Below, piece by piece: positions 1,900 through 40,164 of a stretch of DNA of 64,000 nt. The position numbers and the translations under genes are program-made. The stretch is from a virus: the UHGV virus genome UHGV-0134778. The stretch is one strand, 5' to 3'. A model generated the notes under the pieces. The model worked only from the letters and a program-made list of their open reading frames with translations, made no database searches and was not told the DNA's origin. Numbering within the stretch: position 1 is the first letter of the stretch; each line of letters begins with the position of its first letter.

Positions 1900-4211
1900 T
1901 CACCAAGGTAATTAAAAGCAACGGATGTGAAGTGGCATTCGATCCAGAACGTTTAAATAAGGCGGCTATTTTCGGTGACGACGGTAACGGCAATTGGTCA
2001 CATATTGCACTGGATGCATACAAGCGGCTGTATGATGGATGTACAACCAAAGAAGTTAACCAAGCTATTATAGACTCTTGTGTTAGCCGTAAAGACGAAG
2101 CACATTCCCGTATGGCTGGTCGTGTTCTTATTGGTCAGATTTATAAAGAGGCTTTTGGAGGGTTTACAAAGATCCCTTCCTTACCATCATTTTACAATAC
2201 CATGGTTGAGAAAGGGTATTGGGAGGATATGGGTTATAGCTTTACCGAGCTAAACACTTTAGACGCTGTTATTGACCACAGTAAAGATCTCGGTTATGGC
2301 TATGCAGTCCTTAAACAGTTTCGAGACAAATACGGGATCAAGGATACTCTTAAAGACACCCTGTTCGAATCTCCACAGATGATGTTTATGGGGATAGCGA
2401 TGGCTGTCATGAAAAATATGCCGAAAGAACGCCGTATTGACGATGTTGTAAAATTATACACTTATCTGTCAGACTTAAAGATCAATGCCCCGACACCGTA
2501 CTTAAACGGGCTGCGCACAGGCAAGACAGGGTATGCATCTTGTTGTGTAATAAAAGCTGACGATACAGCAAAATCTATTGGTGTGGCACGTGAAGTTGCA
2601 TACACAATGACGGTTAACCAAGCAGGTATTGGCTACTATTTATCATCAAGATCTGCAGGTGATGGTGTTCGTGGTAACACTATTAAACATATGGGCAAGA
2701 TTCCATATTATCGAGGTATTGATGCTGGGGTTAAGGAGAACAGACAACAATCACGTGGCGGTTCTGCAACAGTATCATTCCTTGCACTGGACCCGCAGAT
2801 TGATGAGCTAATCCGTTTGAGAAACCCTATGACTGTTGCTTCAAAAAGAATCAACACCATGGACTACTCTATAGGTATTAATAGGTCGTTTATCAACCGT
2901 GTGGCTAAAAATTTAGATTGGATGCTTGTTTCTTATAAGCACGCGCCTCAACTGCATGAAGGTATCTTCACCATGTCTATGGAGGAGTTTGATGCCGAGG
3001 TTGATCGTATCGCTAAAGATGACAGTATTCCTAAAACATGGATCCGAGCTAGAGATCTTGCTGTTGAGCTGATCACGCAGCGCACCGAGGTTGGAAGGTT
3101 GTACGTATACTGGACAGATGAGATGAATAGACATACACCTTTTAAAGATGTGATCTATTCAAGTAACCTGTGTGCAGAAATAGCCCTCCCGACAAAAGGC
3201 TATTCAGATATGCGTAATATCTTCAAGTACGATGTTGATGATGGCGAAGTTGCATTGTGCTTCCTGTCATCTCTTGTAGCTGGAAGGGTTACCCCAGAGG
3301 AGTATGAGGATGTTGCATACTACACGGTGCTTATGATTGACAATGTTATGGAAATCATGACATATCCGTATGAAAATATGGAGAGCACTGTTAAAAAACG
3401 CAGATCCATCGGGGTTGGCCTTACCAATGTTGCACATTTTATTGCCAGCCACAAGGTTGCTTACGGGTCTCCTGAAAGTAAACAGCTTGTTCACGATCTT
3501 GCAGAGCTCCACAGCTACAGCTTGCATAAGGCAAGTTTACGATTGGCAAAAGAGCGGGGTGTCTGTGAGTGGATGCATAAAACAAAATACCCGGAGGGTT
3601 GGTTACCAATCGACACTTATAACAAAGAGGTCGATAGTGTGGTGAAAGATCCTTCTCTTAAGCAGGATTGGGAAGGGTTACGTAAAGAAATCATTGAAAA
3701 TGGTGGGCTACGTAATAGCGTTCTTGAAGCATATATGCCTAATGAAAGCTCTTCGCTGGCAACAAACACCACTAACGGGGTTTATCCTGTCCGTGAGCAC
3801 ATTATCTTTAAAAAGTCGCCACAAGGGCAGGTGCTGTTTATCGTTCCTGAATATGATGAACTGAAAGAGTATTATACCTCGGCTTGGGACGTTGATACTA
3901 ACGACATGATTGATATGTATGCTGTGATTCAAAAATTCACAGGACAGGCAATTAGTGCTGACCTATATATTGATTACACCAAGTTGAAAGATGGTAAAAT
4001 TTCAATGAAGGAGCAGCTGGGGTATCTTATCCGTGCTACTAAATTCGGGATGAAGACATGGTATTACTTAAACTCTCGGGTTGGTGCTGGTGACTCTTTG
4101 ACAGAGGAGCTCCACGCGAAGAAACAGGCTGAAGATGAAACCAGAAAGAACTATCCTTTGATTGCAGATAGTTCAGTTGAAGATCCATATTGCGAAAGTT
4201 GTGCACTGTAA
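1896..4211 (+). CDS. nrdA: ribonucleoside-diphosphate reductase large subunit, class I (771 aa)
   Basis: N-terminal ATP-cone (VIKSNGCEVAFDPERLNKA), NLCAEIALPT active-site motif, C-terminal CESC pair; TTG start with GGAGGA RBS. Confidence 0.9.
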   Translation: MITKVIKSNGCEVAFDPERLNKAAIFGDDGNGNWSHIALDAYKRLYDGCTTKEVNQAIIDSCVSRKDEAHSRMAGRVLIGQIYKEAFGGFTKIPSLPSFYNTMVEKGYWEDMGYSFTELNTLDAVIDHSKDLGYGYAVLKQFRDKYGIKDTLKDTLFESPQMMFMGIAMAVMKNMPKERRIDDVVKLYTYLSDLKINAPTPYLNGLRTGKTGYASCCVIKADDTAKSIGVAREVAYTMTVNQAGIGYYLSSRSAGDGVRGNTIKHMGKIPYYRGIDAGVKENRQQSRGGSATVSFLALDPQIDELIRLRNPMTVASKRINTMDYSIGINRSFINRVAKNLDWMLVSYKHAPQLHEGIFTMSMEEFDAEVDRIAKDDSIPKTWIRARDLAVELITQRTEVGRLYVYWTDEMNRHTPFKDVIYSSNLCAEIALPTKGYSDMRNIFKYDVDDGEVALCFLSSLVAGRVTPEEYEDVAYYTVLMIDNVMEIMTYPYENMESTVKKRRSIGVGLTNVAHFIASHKVAYGSPESKQLVHDLAELHSYSLHKASLRLAKERGVCEWMHKTKYPEGWLPIDTYNKEVDSVVKDPSLKQDWEGLRKEIIENGGLRNSVLEAYMPNESSSLATNTTNGVYPVREHIIFKKSPQGQVLFIVPEYDELKEYYTSAWDVDTNDMIDMYAVIQKFTGQAISADLYIDYTKLKDGKISMKEQLGYLIRATKFGMKTWYYLNSRVGAGDSLTEELHAKKQAEDETRKNYPLIADSSVEDPYCESCAL

Positions 4212-7276: not shown

Positions 7277-8539
7277 CAGACTCCATTCATCACATTAAGT
7301 TTAGGACTGGATACCTCAATCTTTGGTAGAATGATTACCAAAAACTACCTGAAAGTCCACAAAATGGGTCTTGGTGAAGAACGTATCACACCTGTGTTCC
7401 CTAAGGTGTTGTTCTTCCTGGAGGAGGGTATCAACATGAACCCCGAGGATCCTAACTATGATTTGAAACGATTAGCTCTGGAATGCTCTGCAGAGCGGAT
7501 TTATCCTGACTTCGTATCTGTACCACTAAATAGAAAAGTGACAGGTTCAACAGAAGGTAATGTCACAAGCATGGGTTGCCGGAGTTTTCTTAGCAAATAC
7601 AATGACTTGGAAACAGGAGAGGAGAAATACCTTGGCAGATTTAACTTAGGTGTTGTTAGCCTTAACCTACCAATGATTGCAGCCAAAGCTAAAACGGAAG
7701 GTGTTGATTTCTTTGCAGTTCTTGACGAGTACTTGGATCTGGCCTACGAGGCTCACCTTGTAAGGGTTAACCGTCTAAAAGGAACAAAGGCAGGGCAGAA
7801 CCCCATCATGTGGTGTGAAGGAGCCCTTGCTCGCCTGGATCCTGAAGAGAGTATTGATAAACTTTTCTATGACGGGTATGCTTCCATAAGTATTGGATAT
7901 ATTGGTGTGTATGAAACCTGCCAGATTTTAGGCAGAGAGGGAGACAAGTCCTTAGCTCTTGGGATCCTTCAGCACATGAAAGACGCTTGTGATCGGTACA
8001 AAAAAGAAAGTGGTCTGGCATTCAGCTTGTACGGCACTCCTTCAGAGAGCTTGTGCTATAAGGCTGCAACATGTCTAGATCGTGAATATCCTGAAGTGTT
8101 GAAGCACGAGCACGAATACCTTACCAACAGTTTCCACCAGCCCGTGTGGATCAATAGTTCACCTTTTGACAAGTGGAAGTATGAGGAAGGTTTTGCTATG
8201 ATCTCTTCTGGCGGCAACATTGGATACATAGAAACACCTAACCTGAAAAACAACCCGGATGCTTTGGAAGCCCTTGTCGATTTCGGGTATAAACACATTA
8301 TGTATTTTGGTATTAACCAACCTGTGGATAAATGCCTTAAGTGTGGATTCTCTGGTGAGTTCAGTGCAACAGCTAAAGGCTTTGTATGCCCAGAGTGTGG
8401 AAACCATGAAGAAGGAACGATCAGCGTGATTAGACGTGTATCTGGGTATTTGTCTAGTCCAAACTCCCGTCCTTACAACAAAGGTAAGCAAGCGGAAGTT
8501 ATAGAACGGGTTAAGCACTACGGAAGTTGTGGTTGCTGA
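7277..8539 (+). CDS. nrdD: anaerobic ribonucleotide reductase NrdD, exon 2
   Basis: Glycyl-radical motif RRVSGYL near C-terminus preceded by CLKCG...CPECG zinc ribbon; the track's METQGW N-terminus (GTG at 7253) is intronic. Confidence 0.8.
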   Translation, partial: QTPFITLSLGLDTSIFGRMITKNYLKVHKMGLGEERITPVFPKVLFFLEEGINMNPEDPNYDLKRLALECSAERIYPDFVSVPLNRKVTGSTEGNVTSMGCRSFLSKYNDLETGEEKYLGRFNLGVVSLNLPMIAAKAKTEGVDFFAVLDEYLDLAYEAHLVRVNRLKGTKAGQNPIMWCEGALARLDPEESIDKLFYDGYASISIGYIGVYETCQILGREGDKSLALGILQHMKDACDRYKKESGLAFSLYGTPSESLCYKAATCLDREYPEVLKHEHEYLTNSFHQPVWINSSPFDKWKYEEGFAMISSGGNIGYIETPNLKNNPDALEALVDFGYKHIMYFGINQPVDKCLKCGFSGEFSATAKGFVCPECGNHEEGTISVIRRVSGYLSSPNSRPYNKGKQAEVIERVKHYGSCGC

Positions 8540-22374: not shown

Positions 22375-22680
22375 ATGGCTAAATCTAAAGTTGAACTGTT
22401 CACCTCTCTGCCTTCTGACACTGCAGAGCGTGATCGCCTCCGTAAAACAATTGAAGAGCTGGTGGAACTTCAGCTTCAGATTAAAGATCTGAAAGACGCT
22501 ATCAAGGATATTATTCTTGTAGAGAAACAGGATCACCTGTATTCTCCTAAGTTTATCAAGTCATTGGTGGCTACCGAATTCGATATCCGCTATGAAGCTG
22601 AAAAACGTCGAGCTAAAATCGAAGAAGAGGTTGAGCACATGTCTGAAGCAGACATTCTGTTCAAACGCTCTGCAGAATAA
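22375..22680 (+). CDS. hypothetical coiled-coil protein (101 aa)
   Basis: AAGGAGA RBS; heptad-like charged sequence. Confidence 0.55.
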   Translation: MAKSKVELFTSLPSDTAERDRLRKTIEELVELQLQIKDLKDAIKDIILVEKQDHLYSPKFIKSLVATEFDIRYEAEKRRAKIEEEVEHMSEADILFKRSAE

Positions 22681-23733: not shown

Positions 23734-24063
23734 TAAACACACATGCATCTGAAGAGACATCCAAAGGAGTGACTATATGTCCCTTGGCTGAGCCAGTGAA
23801 AGAGGAAAACTTAGATTCTGAAGATTCTCCATCTTCGCTCCAGGTAGATCCTGAGGCTGATGACCTAACGTGGGAAGACATCGTAGACATCTGGTTCTCC
23901 ATTATGCCTGAGCACGAAGAGTTCAGAGGTGGCAGACTATGAAGCACCGAGCCCACACAGGTTCCTCATGCTAAAGCATGGCCTGAAGAGGCAAACGTGC
24001 ATAATTCCTGTGCATTGGAACGTATAAAACCCTGTTCACACTCTCATTTCTAGAGGAGATTTC

Positions 24064-24279
24064 ATGAAGATAGAAATATTTGGTGGAGCTGACAACACTT
24101 GTGGCCTGATTTACCTCGAATTCGATGAATCGTACCTGCCAGAAGTGTTAAACATGGATTCTGTTGCTGAGGCTTTGGGAGTAAGTCCTAAAGATCTCTA
24201 CTCTGGTGCTGAGATTGATGGTTGGGAGGAGACCATGAACATCGATTTCAGTGAAGTAGGTGATGAACCGCTGGACTGA
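24064..24279 (+). CDS. hypothetical acidic protein (71 aa), last plus-strand gene of block
   Basis: AGAGGAGA RBS upstream. Confidence 0.5.
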   Translation: MKIEIFGGADNTCGLIYLEFDESYLPEVLNMDSVAEALGVSPKDLYSGAEIDGWEETMNIDFSEVGDEPLD

Positions 24280-25802
24280 CACACAATTAGTTGCCCGGCT
24301 AAAGTGCTGGAAGCACCCATAACATCTTCCAACTAAATTTCCTACCAACACAGTTACTTACCCACCACACATGACTGTTTGCTTGTTTAGTGAGCAGTCA
24401 TCCCTTGACATTCTTGCCTATCTTGATAAAATTAAGTTCTTCTCTTTTCTTTTACCGAGTAATTCGGGTTTTCTGTTCTCTTCGGTTTGAAGGGGTATGG
24501 AGATACACCTGAGTGAACAGGGTGAACAACCGAACCTTTAGCTATGGCATTAGCATGGCGAAGCGGACGGGTGACGAAAGAGGGGCCGGAGGACACCAGT
24601 CACTGCCATATAGTATATGGGTGATAACCTGAAGAGTCTGAATAAGTGTTTAAGTACCAGTCAGAGGAAAAGGTGAATGGTAGCCGAAGGGGGAGGGGGG
24701 TTTCTTATATCTTTAATTTGTATACTTTATATACACTTGTAAACCAATTCAATTAGGATCTGTTTACCACACAAAGTGGATGGAGACAAATATCACCTAT
24801 TAAACTTGAATTATTTATAGAAAATACCACAACACTACTTAAGTCTTTGATTTTACACACAAATCCTACAGATACTCACCCTCCATATTTAACATACTTG
24901 TAACATATCCCATACTCTACCTGTCTGATCAATTTACCCAACTACATCCCCATATTTTTCCTGTCTGTACTACCCCTGCCCCGCCGGGAGTCCCGTCATA
25001 TCTGGCTTCCCAGCAAATATCACACCCACAAATATCATTGCCTGAAGAGGGTTTCATCCCATAATACACACCTTGCCTGAAGAGCGATTCATACACCAAC
25101 TAAATTTTTTAATTGACCCCTCCCCGCCGCCGGAGAGGTTGGCTTTTCCCACACAGGCCTGAAGAGTCAGCCAGAAATATCTGAACAGGCCCAGTTATAC
25201 CACGATTTTGACATGACCGACAGGAGTGCTACCCTGTCAGGAGCCGGTAGCGACTGGAGTGCTGCCAGGCGGACGAAATGGGAATACTTCTCATTCTTAT
25301 AACAATTCTCAAATATCGAGGCAGTGAGGCAAATTAATAGGTGAGGCCGTTCACACAGTGGCACAACATTTGCAACCTATCTTGTGGGGTGAATGAGAAT
25401 ACCTATCATTGTGAGAATAGTTATCATTACGGGCAATTTAACATAATACCCATTATGCGCACCACTGGCGATACATACAGGGATTGATAACATGGGTTAC
25501 TGTTTACGCACATAACAATTATATTTCTTACTATTTGTGCGGGATATAGTTAGCAACCAATAGATTAGATATTGACCTGCGGACTTCTGACCGTCCAGAC
25601 GTCTAAACGCCCACACAACAAGGGTTATACATACATTCCTGAATGTAAACAGGGCCGCAAAAATGCTACCATACCAGTTTGTAAATTTTTCATGCAGCAC
25701 TTGACAAAGAGGAGAAAAACTTGTCTGACACTTTTGCCACTTTTGACACTTTTACCTTTGACACAATATGACACAATAACGGCTGTTACTATTCCATATC
25801 TC

Positions 25803-25858
25803 ACTGTTTACGCATAGACTGTTTACGCCTGAATAGTTTACGCCCAAACTGTTTACAC
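25803..25858 (+). repeat. four tandem iteron-like repeats ACTGTTTACGC
   Basis: ACTGTTTACGC at 25803 and 25818, AGTTTACGC at 25835, ACTGTTTACAC at 25848; further copies near 25508 and 26322. Confidence 0.7.
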
Positions 25859-25869
25859 AGAGATGATGA

Positions 25870-26163
25870 GCCATGCCATTCGTTTGCATGAAAACAATTA
25901 ACAAGATAACAATTAACAAGTTAATAATCTTTCGCTGGCTATGCCAGGTGACTAGGTCACCCCTTCGGGCGTTTATATGACATAATATAAAAGCAGGGCA
26001 ACTATTAGAAGATCTATAGTTGCCTTGCTTGTTATGTCATGATTAACTAAATACAAGGCAACTATGATCTGAGTAATAGATTGCAGAAAAACTATCACGG
26101 GGGTGATGGTTACTGCTTTTATATTATGTCGCGACTCCGTCGCGCCATGCCATTCGTTTGCAT
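25870..26163. repeat. composite element: 20-bp direct repeats flanking 18-bp inverted repeats and GGCAACTAT hairpins
   Basis: DR GCCATGCCATTCGTTTGCAT at 25870 and 26144; IR GACATAATATAAAAGCAG (25979-25996) vs CTGCTTTTATATTATGTC (26113-26130); GGCAACTAT/ATAGTTGCC four times; palindromes GGTGACTAGGTCACC and GCGACTCCGTCGC. Confidence 0.7.
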
Positions 26164-26780
26164 AGTTGCCTTATTGTTACAGGTAAAATAATTACATTAT
26201 TAATTATTTCTTATCTTTCTCTTAGTCATCTAATGATTCCAGTCAGTATAGTAATGTACAGTAAACATTAGACGACTAAAGATTTCTCTGTTTATGATAA
26301 CTCATCGTGATAATTTCGGGCTGTTTACGAAAAATGTTGACACCTGAGCTGATTTATGTTATGCAGTCTACACGAATAATTATTTTATGCAGGTATTGAC
26401 TATTCCGTTATTCTGTGGTTGGAATAAATACTTTGCAGGCTATAGAATGGCGTGCGTACGTGAATTCTGAGATCTGGCGGCTATAGTTATACTCGATTTT
26501 TCGCGTAGAACACGCTTTAGATGCTGTGTAAGTGTATGACTTATAAAGATTTTTAGTTGTTGACAAGATATTGGAGATGTGCATCAGGTTAAAATTTGTG
26601 CAATAGCGGCATTACGTGCACTTTTGGGAGAGAAAACGGGTAAAAATGGACTTGCTACCACACAATGAAAAATTATGCAATAGTTATTTTCCATGTATAT
26701 TTGTACAGTATGTGGGATTGATGGCTAGTCAATTATTCCACTTGCCAGGTAGGGCCGTTTATGGTAGGAGAAGAGCAGAC

Positions 26781-26805
26781 AAAAAGAAAGGGGCCTAAGC
26801 CCCTT
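26781..26805 (-). terminator. intrinsic terminator ending the minus-strand block
   Basis: On minus strand AAGGGGC-TTAG-GCCCCTT hairpin followed by TCTTTTT. Confidence 0.6.
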
Positions 26806-26823
26806 GATAATTCAGTTAAAAAA

Positions 26824-27243
26824 TTATAATGATTCGTATATTTCAAAAATCCGATTTGCCAGGTCGTTACGGTAGCTGAATTTTTCCTCACGTTTGATCA
26901 TAAGATCTTTATAGCCGTACTCTTTAAGCACTTCATTAACTTTATGGCGGCATACTTTCATATTATCCTGCGCGTCACCAATAAATCTGTTGCTATGGTG
27001 CATGGCTTTAATTTCTTCTTCCAGGACCAGGGCAACTATGCGGACCGGATCAAGCTGATAGGCGGTAACATCCATGCGGCATTGTAAACGGCTTTTTACG
27101 TCTGCCACCGGATATACTGCAACCTCTTCCCCGTCAACATTGACAATAATTAGTTTACCATCGATTTCGAATCCTTTCGCCGCCGGACCGTGACAAAAAG
27201 CGTTATCAAAGCTATATGCCGGATTATTAGATTTAATGTTCAT
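26824..27243 (-). CDS. hypothetical protein (139 aa)
   Basis: Co-oriented minus-strand ORF. Confidence 0.55.
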   Translation of the reverse strand: MNIKSNNPAYSFDNAFCHGPAAKGFEIDGKLIIVNVDGEEVAVYPVADVKSRLQCRMDVTAYQLDPVRIVALVLEEEIKAMHHSNRFIGDAQDNMKVCRHKVNEVLKEYGYKDLMIKREEKFSYRNDLANRIFEIYESL

Positions 27244-39196: not shown

Positions 39197-39259
39197 AATG
39201 TATCCCTCTCTGCTGGTTTATGTTTGTATTATACACCGCAGTTTTCAGATGTCAATCTT

Positions 39260-39705: not shown

Positions 39706-40164
39706 TCAACACTCTTTGTACTCCACCACGATAATATCTATATCAAAAGTGGCAAGGTTAATAACGTCCTCCACGTGTCCCCACTTCAAGCCGCCTATGC
39801 CGCACCCAATCTTAGGTATGTAGAATGGTAAAGTCGATCTCTTGAATATCTCATTTACTCGCTCAAAGCCTTTCAGAATTGAGAAATACTCAGCATTAGG
39901 TCCTGGGTAGAACTGAGTGTATAGATTGATTCCGTATACAATACCTTTCGGAGATAAGTGCTCCCACCGAGAGAACGCTCCTAGCTTACTTAGGCAACCG
40001 TAGGTAGTCGTTTTGTCAGCCGCCAATGCTTGAGGGAACTCACGGGAAATTTGTTTTGCTACACCCTTACCCATTGTGTGGAAGCAGTTACAACCGTGGA
40101 TCAGGTGACCAGCACCGCTCTTAAAAAGGGAGATTAGATCTCCCTCTACAGTATCAATAATCAC
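39706..40164 (-). CDS. macro-domain (ADP-ribose-binding/processing)-like protein (about 152 aa)
   Basis: Macro-like motifs GDLISLF, HGCNCFHTMGKGVAKQI, IPKIGCGIGGLKW; likely GTG start at 40164 with GAGGAG RBS (track ORF extends to 40263). Confidence 0.45.
   Translation of the reverse strand: MIIDTVEGDLISLFKSGAGHLIHGCNCFHTMGKGVAKQISREFPQALAADKTTTYGCLSKLGAFSRWEHLSPKGIVYGINLYTQFYPGPNAEYFSILKGFERVNEIFKRSTLPFYIPKIGCGIGGLKWGHVEDVINLATFDIDIIVVEYKEC

Follow-up and report, generated by a model that had tools for sequence, protein, structure and literature searches.

Short repeats beside a terminal repetition are known from phage T7, where they are said to be the SRL and SRR of Dunn and Studier. In the T7 record, the heptamer CCTAAAG occurs five times on one strand between 39671 and 39837, around the start of the terminal repetition, which Dunn and Studier reportedly placed at 39778, and the promoter phiOR at 39229 reads toward the right end. 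To our knowledge, the function of these short repeats has itself not been firmly established. T7 packaging requires a pac site beside the terminal repeat, and pausing of RNA polymerase at the concatemer junction starts maturation (PMC13236587, PMC3276506). Here we describe a 64,000-nucleotide stretch of the virus genome UHGV-0134778 (hereafter the window), in which five plus-strand copies of the 9-mer CCTGAAGAG lead up to the direct terminal repeat (DTR) of an E. coli phage. We tentatively read these copies as recognition sites for a DNA-binding protein at the genome end.

An earlier note on this DNA had listed five same-strand copies of a motif written as (T/G)GCCTGAAGAG. Five plus-strand sites do exist at those places, but the word common to all of them is the 9-mer CCTGAAGAG (Table 1). 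Exact GCCTGAAGAG is found four times in the window, at 23981, 25040, 25075 and 25157 and on the plus strand only, and the remaining site, at 24627, reads ACCTGAAGAG and does not fit the earlier formula. About 0.16 occurrences of GCCTGAAGAG would be expected per window on both strands, and none of 100 shuffles gave at least four. The 9-mer itself occurs seven times in the whole window, again on the plus strand only, against 0.64 expected; the two outlying copies (409 and 7841) lie within long plus-strand open reading frames (ORFs). In ~0.7 Mb of unrelated metagenome DNA, its background rate was 1.28 per 100 kb over both strands. The shuffles and this background rate rule out a chance origin of the array: five copies in 1.2 kb are far above chance. 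Their spacing is irregular (35, 82, 413 and 646 nt).

Counting on both strands was extended to the complete genome of the relative ECP2309 (136,863 bp), which holds eight plus-strand copies and one minus-strand copy of CCTGAAGAG where ~0.6–0.9 per strand are expected. Five of the eight plus-strand copies fall within the last 1.72 kb, and the other three lie inside coding sequences, as judged from their positions against the annotation tables. The motif, which had been described as dispersed, is therefore a local feature of the right genome end and not a genome-wide signal.

The window belongs to an rV5-like E. coli phage of the genus Vequintavirus, and the motif region is 92–95% identical to that of ~120 rV5-like coliphages. 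Because the plus-strand genes end at 24279 and the minus-strand genes begin past ~26400–26824, the motif lies in a ~2.6-kb "non-coding" box between convergent gene blocks. This 2.6-kb gap has already been noted in print for rV5, where the box was drawn without further comment and the terminators expected there were not found (PMC3606486, PMC4591320). For phage LL12, a genome note gives a PhageTerm-predicted non-permuted terminal redundancy of 459 bp inside the gap (PMC6658697), which maps to window positions 25268–25725 at 95.9% identity. The ECP2309 record carries an identical 459-bp copy of the repeat at both ends, the YN3 record also has the repeat at both ends, the Gotham record annotates it as a repeat region at the record end, and several further records start exactly at the DTR position. 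Since the LL12 prediction and these independent deposits place the genome ends at 25268–25725, the window is an assembly with the DTR collapsed. The BME3 record, in which the repeat is mis-assembled or multi-copy, is of little use for comparison.

A test of the flanks located the array of same-strand, irregularly spaced copies directly beside the DTR boundary. In the virion, copies 3, 4 and 5 start 227, 192 and 110 nt before the right-hand DTR, and copies 2 and 1 lie 0.64 and 1.29 kb before it. The distance from the start of the last copy to the DTR is 77 nt in ECP2309 and ~130 nt in contig L142 of a divergent clade described below, and 77–133 nt over the lineages examined. No CCTGAAGAG was found on either strand in 25268–26900, that is, inside the DTR or on its right flank. 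Between copy 5 and the DTR, close relatives differ by insertions and deletions of hairpin-forming modules, and the DTR start GGCGGACGAAATGGG is conserved.

Conservation was assessed in an alignment of 16 genomes over 23900–25330. None of the 45 motif columns varies, compared with 37–41% of the other columns of the tract, and for copies 3–5 alone this invariance has P ~6e-7 to 4e-6. The base preceding the core varies (G, A or T), and so do the bases that follow. A divergent clade, represented by the IMG/VR contigs L142, L147 and L149 and the metagenome contigs L151 and L156, has a gap that can be aligned to the window only in short patches of 76–81% identity; it carries two to six exact same-strand copies over the same 1.3–1.9 kb ahead of its presumptive DTR. 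No inverted copy was found nearby where this was checked (L147 and L149), and one is present in L142, ~0.4 kb right of the presumptive DTR. Among the 120 loci listed by a metagenome scan with a short pattern, four were relevant, and a scan of viral contigs for two motif copies yielded mostly unrelated repeats. These comparisons establish CCTGAAGAG as a real signal under strong purifying selection.

Some copies hold their position in both clades: the one ahead of the last plus-strand gene (67–83 nt before the start codon in the divergent clade), the homologue of copy 3 downstream of a CACAAATATCA element, and the last copy before the DTR, which is followed by a small hairpin with an AAAUAU loop. 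Others come and go. Copy 2 is exact in L142 and L147, has been lost by a 25-nt deletion in L149, L151 and L156, and reads CCTGAAAAG in L209; copy 4 is inexact in L148 and reads TCTGAAGAG in L209. Judged from these variants, copies 2 and 4 are dispensable in nature.

The description of the surrounding sequence as strongly C/T-rich stood in part. Copies 3–5 do lie in a C-rich, G-poor tract, but the wording was overstated, as the tract is 57% pyrimidine and is distinguished by its excess of C over G, and copies 1 and 2 lie outside it. The stretch around copy 2 is rich in G (31%), and copy 1 is surrounded by sequence of ordinary composition between two genes. A coding repeat was rejected, since no ORF is conserved over copies 3–5 or the tract 24711–25170, the 35-nt step from copy 3 to copy 4 breaks the frame, and the indels come in lengths not divisible by three.

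Table 1. Features around the right genome end, in window coordinates (last row: coordinates in contigs of the divergent clade).
Feature	Position	Strand	Remarks
CCTGAAGAG copy 1	23982–23990	+	In gap ahead of the last plus-strand gene (24064–24279)
Sigma-70-type promoter TTGACA-16-TAAAAT	24405–24432	+	With upstream TG; reads toward the DTR
Candidate structured noncoding RNA	24440–24711	+	~270 nt; ends inferred
CCTGAAGAG copy 2 (ACCTGAAGAG)	24628–24636	+	Within the structured RNA candidate
C-rich, G-poor tract	24711–25170	+	C 27.8%, G 12.6%; contains copies 3–5
(C/G)AAATATC elements	24787, 25014, 25029, 25174, 25310	+	Last one ~43 nt inside the DTR
Two CAAATATC elements	25014–25036	+	The 25174 element is GAAATATC
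CCTGAAGAG copy 3	25041–25049	+	5 bases downstream of CAAATATC
CCTGAAGAG copy 4	25076–25084	+	No clear counterpart in the divergent clade; least constant copy
CCTGAAGAG copy 5	25158–25166	+	Final copy ahead of the DTR; motif end to DTR start 101 nt
Indel-variable stretch (hairpin modules)	25215–25250		Between copy 5 and the DTR
DTR (physical genome ends)	25268–25725		458 bp; one collapsed copy in this assembly
TGACAC(TTTT) repeats	25726–25775	+	Directly right of the DTR; four to five copies
ACTGTTTACGC repeats	25803–25859	+	Four copies at 15-nt spacing; extra copy at 25499
DnaA boxes, divergent clade	L142 (reverse complement) 3534–3573; L147 11959–11998; L149 9457–9496

The reading that we put forward, as a tentative one built on sequence comparison, is that the CCTGAAGAG copies are recognition sites for a sequence-specific DNA-binding protein at the concatemer junction or genome end. 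One protein, probably phage-encoded, would dock on all copies as cis-acting sites, and the bound protein would most likely assist the packaging machinery in locating or processing the concatemer junction, in the manner of pac or cosB-type repeats. Among the roles proposed in the earlier note, recognition sites are the best supported, given a motif that is strand-specific, under strong purifying selection and clustered at the physical genome end. A docking site is favored because a strict, asymmetric 9-mer with free flanks varies in number and spacing, forms no consistent hairpin and stays anchored to the DTR boundary. From this pattern we infer protein binding, DNA rather than RNA as the target, and packaging or end formation as the process served. 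A conserved host-type promoter points toward the array.

Several observations weigh against such a role. Copies 1 and 2 lie a long way from the DTR for a packaging signal (1.29 and 0.64 kb), and since copy number, spacing and the interval between the last copy and the DTR all vary, there is no fixed cut-site geometry. No copy lies in or right of the DTR, unlike the T7 heptamers. The phi92-like and phAPEC8-like phages share the DTR boundary and its AAATATC elements but lack CCTGAAGAG, and the actual signal for terminase may be these elements, whose conservation reaches further. No binding protein was found, the flanking proteins being without a Pfam domain; a nearby 101-aa protein (22375–22680) matches a PHROG "transcriptional regulator" family, PHROG-639. 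Finally, every copy is on the transcribed strand, and CCTGAAGAG is found only in the lineage in which plus-strand transcription enters the DTR. That restriction fits a role in RNA or transcription too and keeps such a role alive.

One source of such transcription would be the promoter at 24405–24432, the best sigma-70 match of the region (11 of 12 consensus positions), whose hexamers do not vary among the 16 genomes. At the equivalent place, the divergent clade carries TTGCAA-17-TATAAT, followed by a homologous ~280-nt element with many substitutions. In the 16 genomes, 24394–24705 is almost invariant (15 of 312 columns vary, compared with 13.9% in adjacent coding sequence). RNAalifold, applied to six sequences, predicted 51 pairs, nine of them with compensatory double changes. 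The predicted structure includes a terminal stem between a 5' pyrimidine leader and a 3' G-run, with pair-preserving single-base changes, a first hairpin with three of its four pairs exchanged between the clades, and a long-range helix of UAUGGCA with UGCCAUA. It leaves 98.4% of cells paired, compared with 47–56% when the partners are slid, and the nine double-change pairs compare with 0–3 in the slid controls; this covariation rests on effectively two lineages and on the alignment that also yielded the structure. Folded as a single sequence, the candidate gives no significant result (z = −1.2), so the support for a structure comes from the comparison between clades. The 3' G-run pattern GGGNAGGG is kept in both clades, and copy 2 falls in an unpaired linker.

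A tRNA or a known RNA family was rejected as an explanation: no tRNA was found, and Rfam gave no family for the window when gathering thresholds were applied, nor any relevant one in 23800–26900 at E ≤ 10. A small hairpin with a U-run at 24455–24477 on the plus strand, ~15 nt past the predicted transcription start, has a stem that compensatory changes replace in the divergent clade. It could act as an attenuator, or else form the RNA's first helix.

These features bear on the main rival reading, which we regard as rather unlikely, namely that the motif acts as RNA, with CCUGAAGAG as a binding or cleavage site on plus-strand transcripts: the end of the long plus-strand operon, the RNA from the 24405 promoter, and read-through into the C-rich tract. 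The word might then make the transcript a decoy or sponge that captures an RNA-binding protein; it might also mark RNA processing, as the earlier note had proposed, or signal termination or anti-termination. All copies do lie on the strand transcribed from the plus-strand gene block and from this promoter. Copy 2, in its linker within a covariation-supported candidate, is exact in both clades where it is present, the 5' untranslated region of the last gene contains copy 1 in either clade, and the C-rich, G-poor tract would yield unstructured, Rho-accessible RNA. A strict core in variable number and spacing resembles sponge RNAs of the CsrB type, and related subfamilies without plus-strand transcription into the DTR lack the motif. 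Yet three natural variants lose copy 2 with the rest of the RNA intact, the motif is not seen on inspection in any consistent hairpin or loop, and the array follows the DTR boundary in all lineages. A role as RNA also presupposes a putative transcript across 24711–25267. In L142, a 256-aa ORF for an HNH_3 homing endonuclease (7716–8486, plus in that locus and opposite to the motif; Pfam E = 1.6e-18) forms an insertion that separates the RNA element from the C-rich tract, ahead of copies 3'–5', and this opposite-strand gene with its own promoter would split any single transcript holding all copies, which favors a role at the DNA level. The likely promoter of the HNH gene, TTGACT-17-TATATT, overlaps the reverse complement of one motif copy (by inspection).

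Specific RNA elements were considered and rejected. CUGAAGA fits the CUGANGA core of a hammerhead, but the remaining core parts are missing and Rfam gave no hammerhead at E ≤ 10; copy 2 alone shows, on inspection, an arrangement resembling stem II plus GAAA, with a G-G mismatch and no partner for stem I. CCUGAAGA resembles the 5' arm and loop of the boxB of lambda nutL, but a 3' arm is missing or not conserved at each of the five copies. More generally, the flanks do not pair consistently, which rejects a hairpin of any kind with the motif in its loop.

Combining both lines, the RNA at 24440–24711 and the array could form one RNA-dependent genome-terminus module, with the 9-mer as a docking word common to RNA and DNA, although we hold this to be decidedly improbable. 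By analogy with the pRNA of phi29, the RNA may act in concatemer-junction processing or packaging, here in a terminase-using myovirus; alternatively, it may prime replication through an R-loop at the G-run, as in ColE1 or at the mitochondrial CSBII.

Priming of this kind also figures in another unlikely account, in which the copies are iterons or initiator sites of a replication origin in the noncoding gap, and the G-rich transcript of the 24405 promoter, ending in GGGGGAGGGGGG, primes through an R-loop as do ColE1 RNA II, T4 oriF/oriG and the mitochondrial LSP-CSBII. The gap does hold several same-strand families of direct repeats, inverted repeats and AT-rich stretches, and downstream of a strong, conserved promoter the non-template strand is rich in G. 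The divergent clade carries three consensus DnaA boxes, TTATCCACA, in direct orientation inside its presumptive DTR; no DnaA box was found in the gap of this window. The copy spacings lack helical phasing, no initiator domain was recognized in the neighboring proteins, and the conservation of the G-run is explained by its RNA helix with the 5' pyrimidine leader, just as the local switch in GC skew is explained by gene orientation. The AT-rich DNA and the inverted repeats are separated from the array by the DTR.

The earlier note had also suggested promoters for a non-sigma70 polymerase, and this was not supported. We consider it very improbable that the copies are promoter elements, whether for a phage-modified or non-sigma70 polymerase on the plus strand or as operator or −35-region elements of minus-strand promoters. 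CATAAT does follow copies 1 and 3 after 9–10 nt (TTGCCT-16-CATAAT scores 9 of 12), and the overlap of a reverse-complement copy with the good minus-strand HNH promoter of L142 would suit the operator version. However, the motif is confined to the last ~1.3–1.7 kb and does not stand ahead of genes elsewhere in the genome (ECP2309), copies 2–5 have no gene downstream on either strand, and neither copies 2, 4 and 5 nor the divergent clade retain the −10-like elements. Moreover, the promoters found in rV5 were all of the sigma70 type, its late-promoter motif was a different one, and the T4 late-transcription proteins gp33, gp45 and gp55 had no homologues there (PMC3606486). Sigma-70 promoters on either strand were rejected for the motif, as only some copies qualify and these are not conserved. 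Likeness to sigma-54, IHF, CsrA, ops and Chi sites was checked by eye and gave no consistent match, the real Chi site lying 3.3 kb away.

The least we can credit, as extremely improbable, is that each copy is a place where one strand is nicked site-specifically, or where a nicking or homing enzyme recognizes the DNA. A strictly strand-specific motif that contains the type IIS/IIG-like words CTGAAG and GAAGAG would be suited to this, and DTR formation in the T7 model requires nicks near the repeat boundaries. However, the copies cannot be the end-forming cuts because they lie 110–1286 nt from the precise DTR boundary, and known phage nick motifs of the T5 and phiKMV type are dispersed over the genome, unlike the clustered CCTGAAGAG. 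CTGAAG and GAAGAG show no comparable strand bias genome-wide, which also dismisses an orientation bias of restriction sites as the origin of the pattern.

Other repeats accompany CCTGAAGAG at the DTR. The AAATATC-type elements are, in the sequences compared, more widely conserved than CCTGAAGAG: those upstream of the DTR all fall in invariant blocks of the 16-genome alignment, and related elements, GGCAA(N)AATATC, stand just ahead of the DTR in the phi92-like contig L144 and in the Phapecoctavirus Mt1B1_P17 (phAPEC8-like). CAAATATC is also found ~43 nt inside the DTR in both. These phages share the DTR-boundary sequence but not CCTGAAGAG, and they have same-strand repeats of their own within the 170–260 bp before the DTR (TCGGCAA four times in L144, TCATGGCAA three times in Mt1B1_P17). 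The divergent clade carries a ACTGTTTCCAC array related to the ACTGTTTACGC repeats, and in the window palindromes and AT-rich DNA follow the two repeat arrays right of the DTR.

Further repeats were seen in the same area. A tandem TGAGAATAnnTATCATT at 25394–25428, in the DTR, is common to the DTRs of the phi92-like BME3 and L144 and the phAPEC8-like Mt1B1_P17. GCCATGCCATTCGTTTGCAT, 20 nt long, is repeated perfectly in direct orientation at 25870 and 26144, and a cluster of palindromes and inverted repeats built on ATAGTTGCC occupies 25988–26179. The Chi site, GCTGGTGG, lies at 22458 on the plus strand, 3.3 kb from the right genome end and in the orientation recognisable by RecBCD entering there; ECP2309 has four Chi sites, on the plus strand only. 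The label "DNA translocase FtsK", given in some records to a nearby 87-aa protein, is without Pfam support. GenBank also holds ~19 "Campylobacter phage" records (MG0656xx), one of them marked UNVERIFIED, whose identity to this part of the coliphage is ~87–94%; mislabelling of, or contamination by, rV5-like genomes is the probable explanation.

The gap and the DTR position had already been published. No description of the CCTGAAGAG array, the AAATATC elements or the RNA candidate was found in the searchable literature, and as far as that literature shows they are new. The rV5-like phages (Vequintavirus) count among the coliphages isolated most frequently and have a place in cocktails for therapy and biocontrol, and the 2.6-kb "non-coding" box has been left blank in their annotation since 2013. 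It now holds the genome ends, flanking cis elements under selection (CCTGAAGAG and AAATATC) and a conserved RNA gene candidate. These are concrete targets for defining the packaging signal, and through it for engineering, for transducing particles and for correct genome termini in databases. The array is a real, selected signal in a practically important phage genus; it introduces no new principle, and it offers a second, independent system for the question of short repeats beside T7-type terminal repeats.

How closely the locus matches described systems differs from case to case. With DnaA-box and iteron arrays it shares a strict, asymmetric 9-mer in several copies within a repeat-rich noncoding region, but it lacks phasing, an adjacent initiator gene and, in the gap of the window, DnaA boxes. 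Sponge RNAs such as CsrB and RsmZ likewise carry a conserved short word in variable number and spacing on a noncoding transcript; CCTGAAGAG, unlike their words, is not placed in hairpin loops, has one copy upstream of the noncoding promoter, and in L142 would be carried by an interrupted transcript. Closer in kind are the R sites of lambda cosB and the pac repeats of P1 and SPP1, where several copies of a short word likewise stand by the terminase cut site. Those arrays keep within ~100–200 bp of the cut, include some inverted copies and have a known binding protein, whereas binding at CCTGAAGAG is putative and the small terminase subunit was not identified.

A same-strand array of short repeats beside a terminal repeat is known in kind from T7, and the CCTAAAG repeats are the closest known parallel of the CCTGAAGAG array. 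The differences are plain: the T7 heptamers also lie inside the DTR and on its other flank, places that AAATATC, TGACAC and ACTGTTTACGC fill here; T7 uses its own RNA polymerase, whereas the promoter here is of the host sigma-70 type; and the CCTGAAGAG array spans 1.3 kb, with one copy inside the RNA gene candidate. The likeness lies in an upstream promoter that reads toward the DTR and in the use that T7 packaging makes of cis sequences adjoining the repeat and of transcription into the junction.

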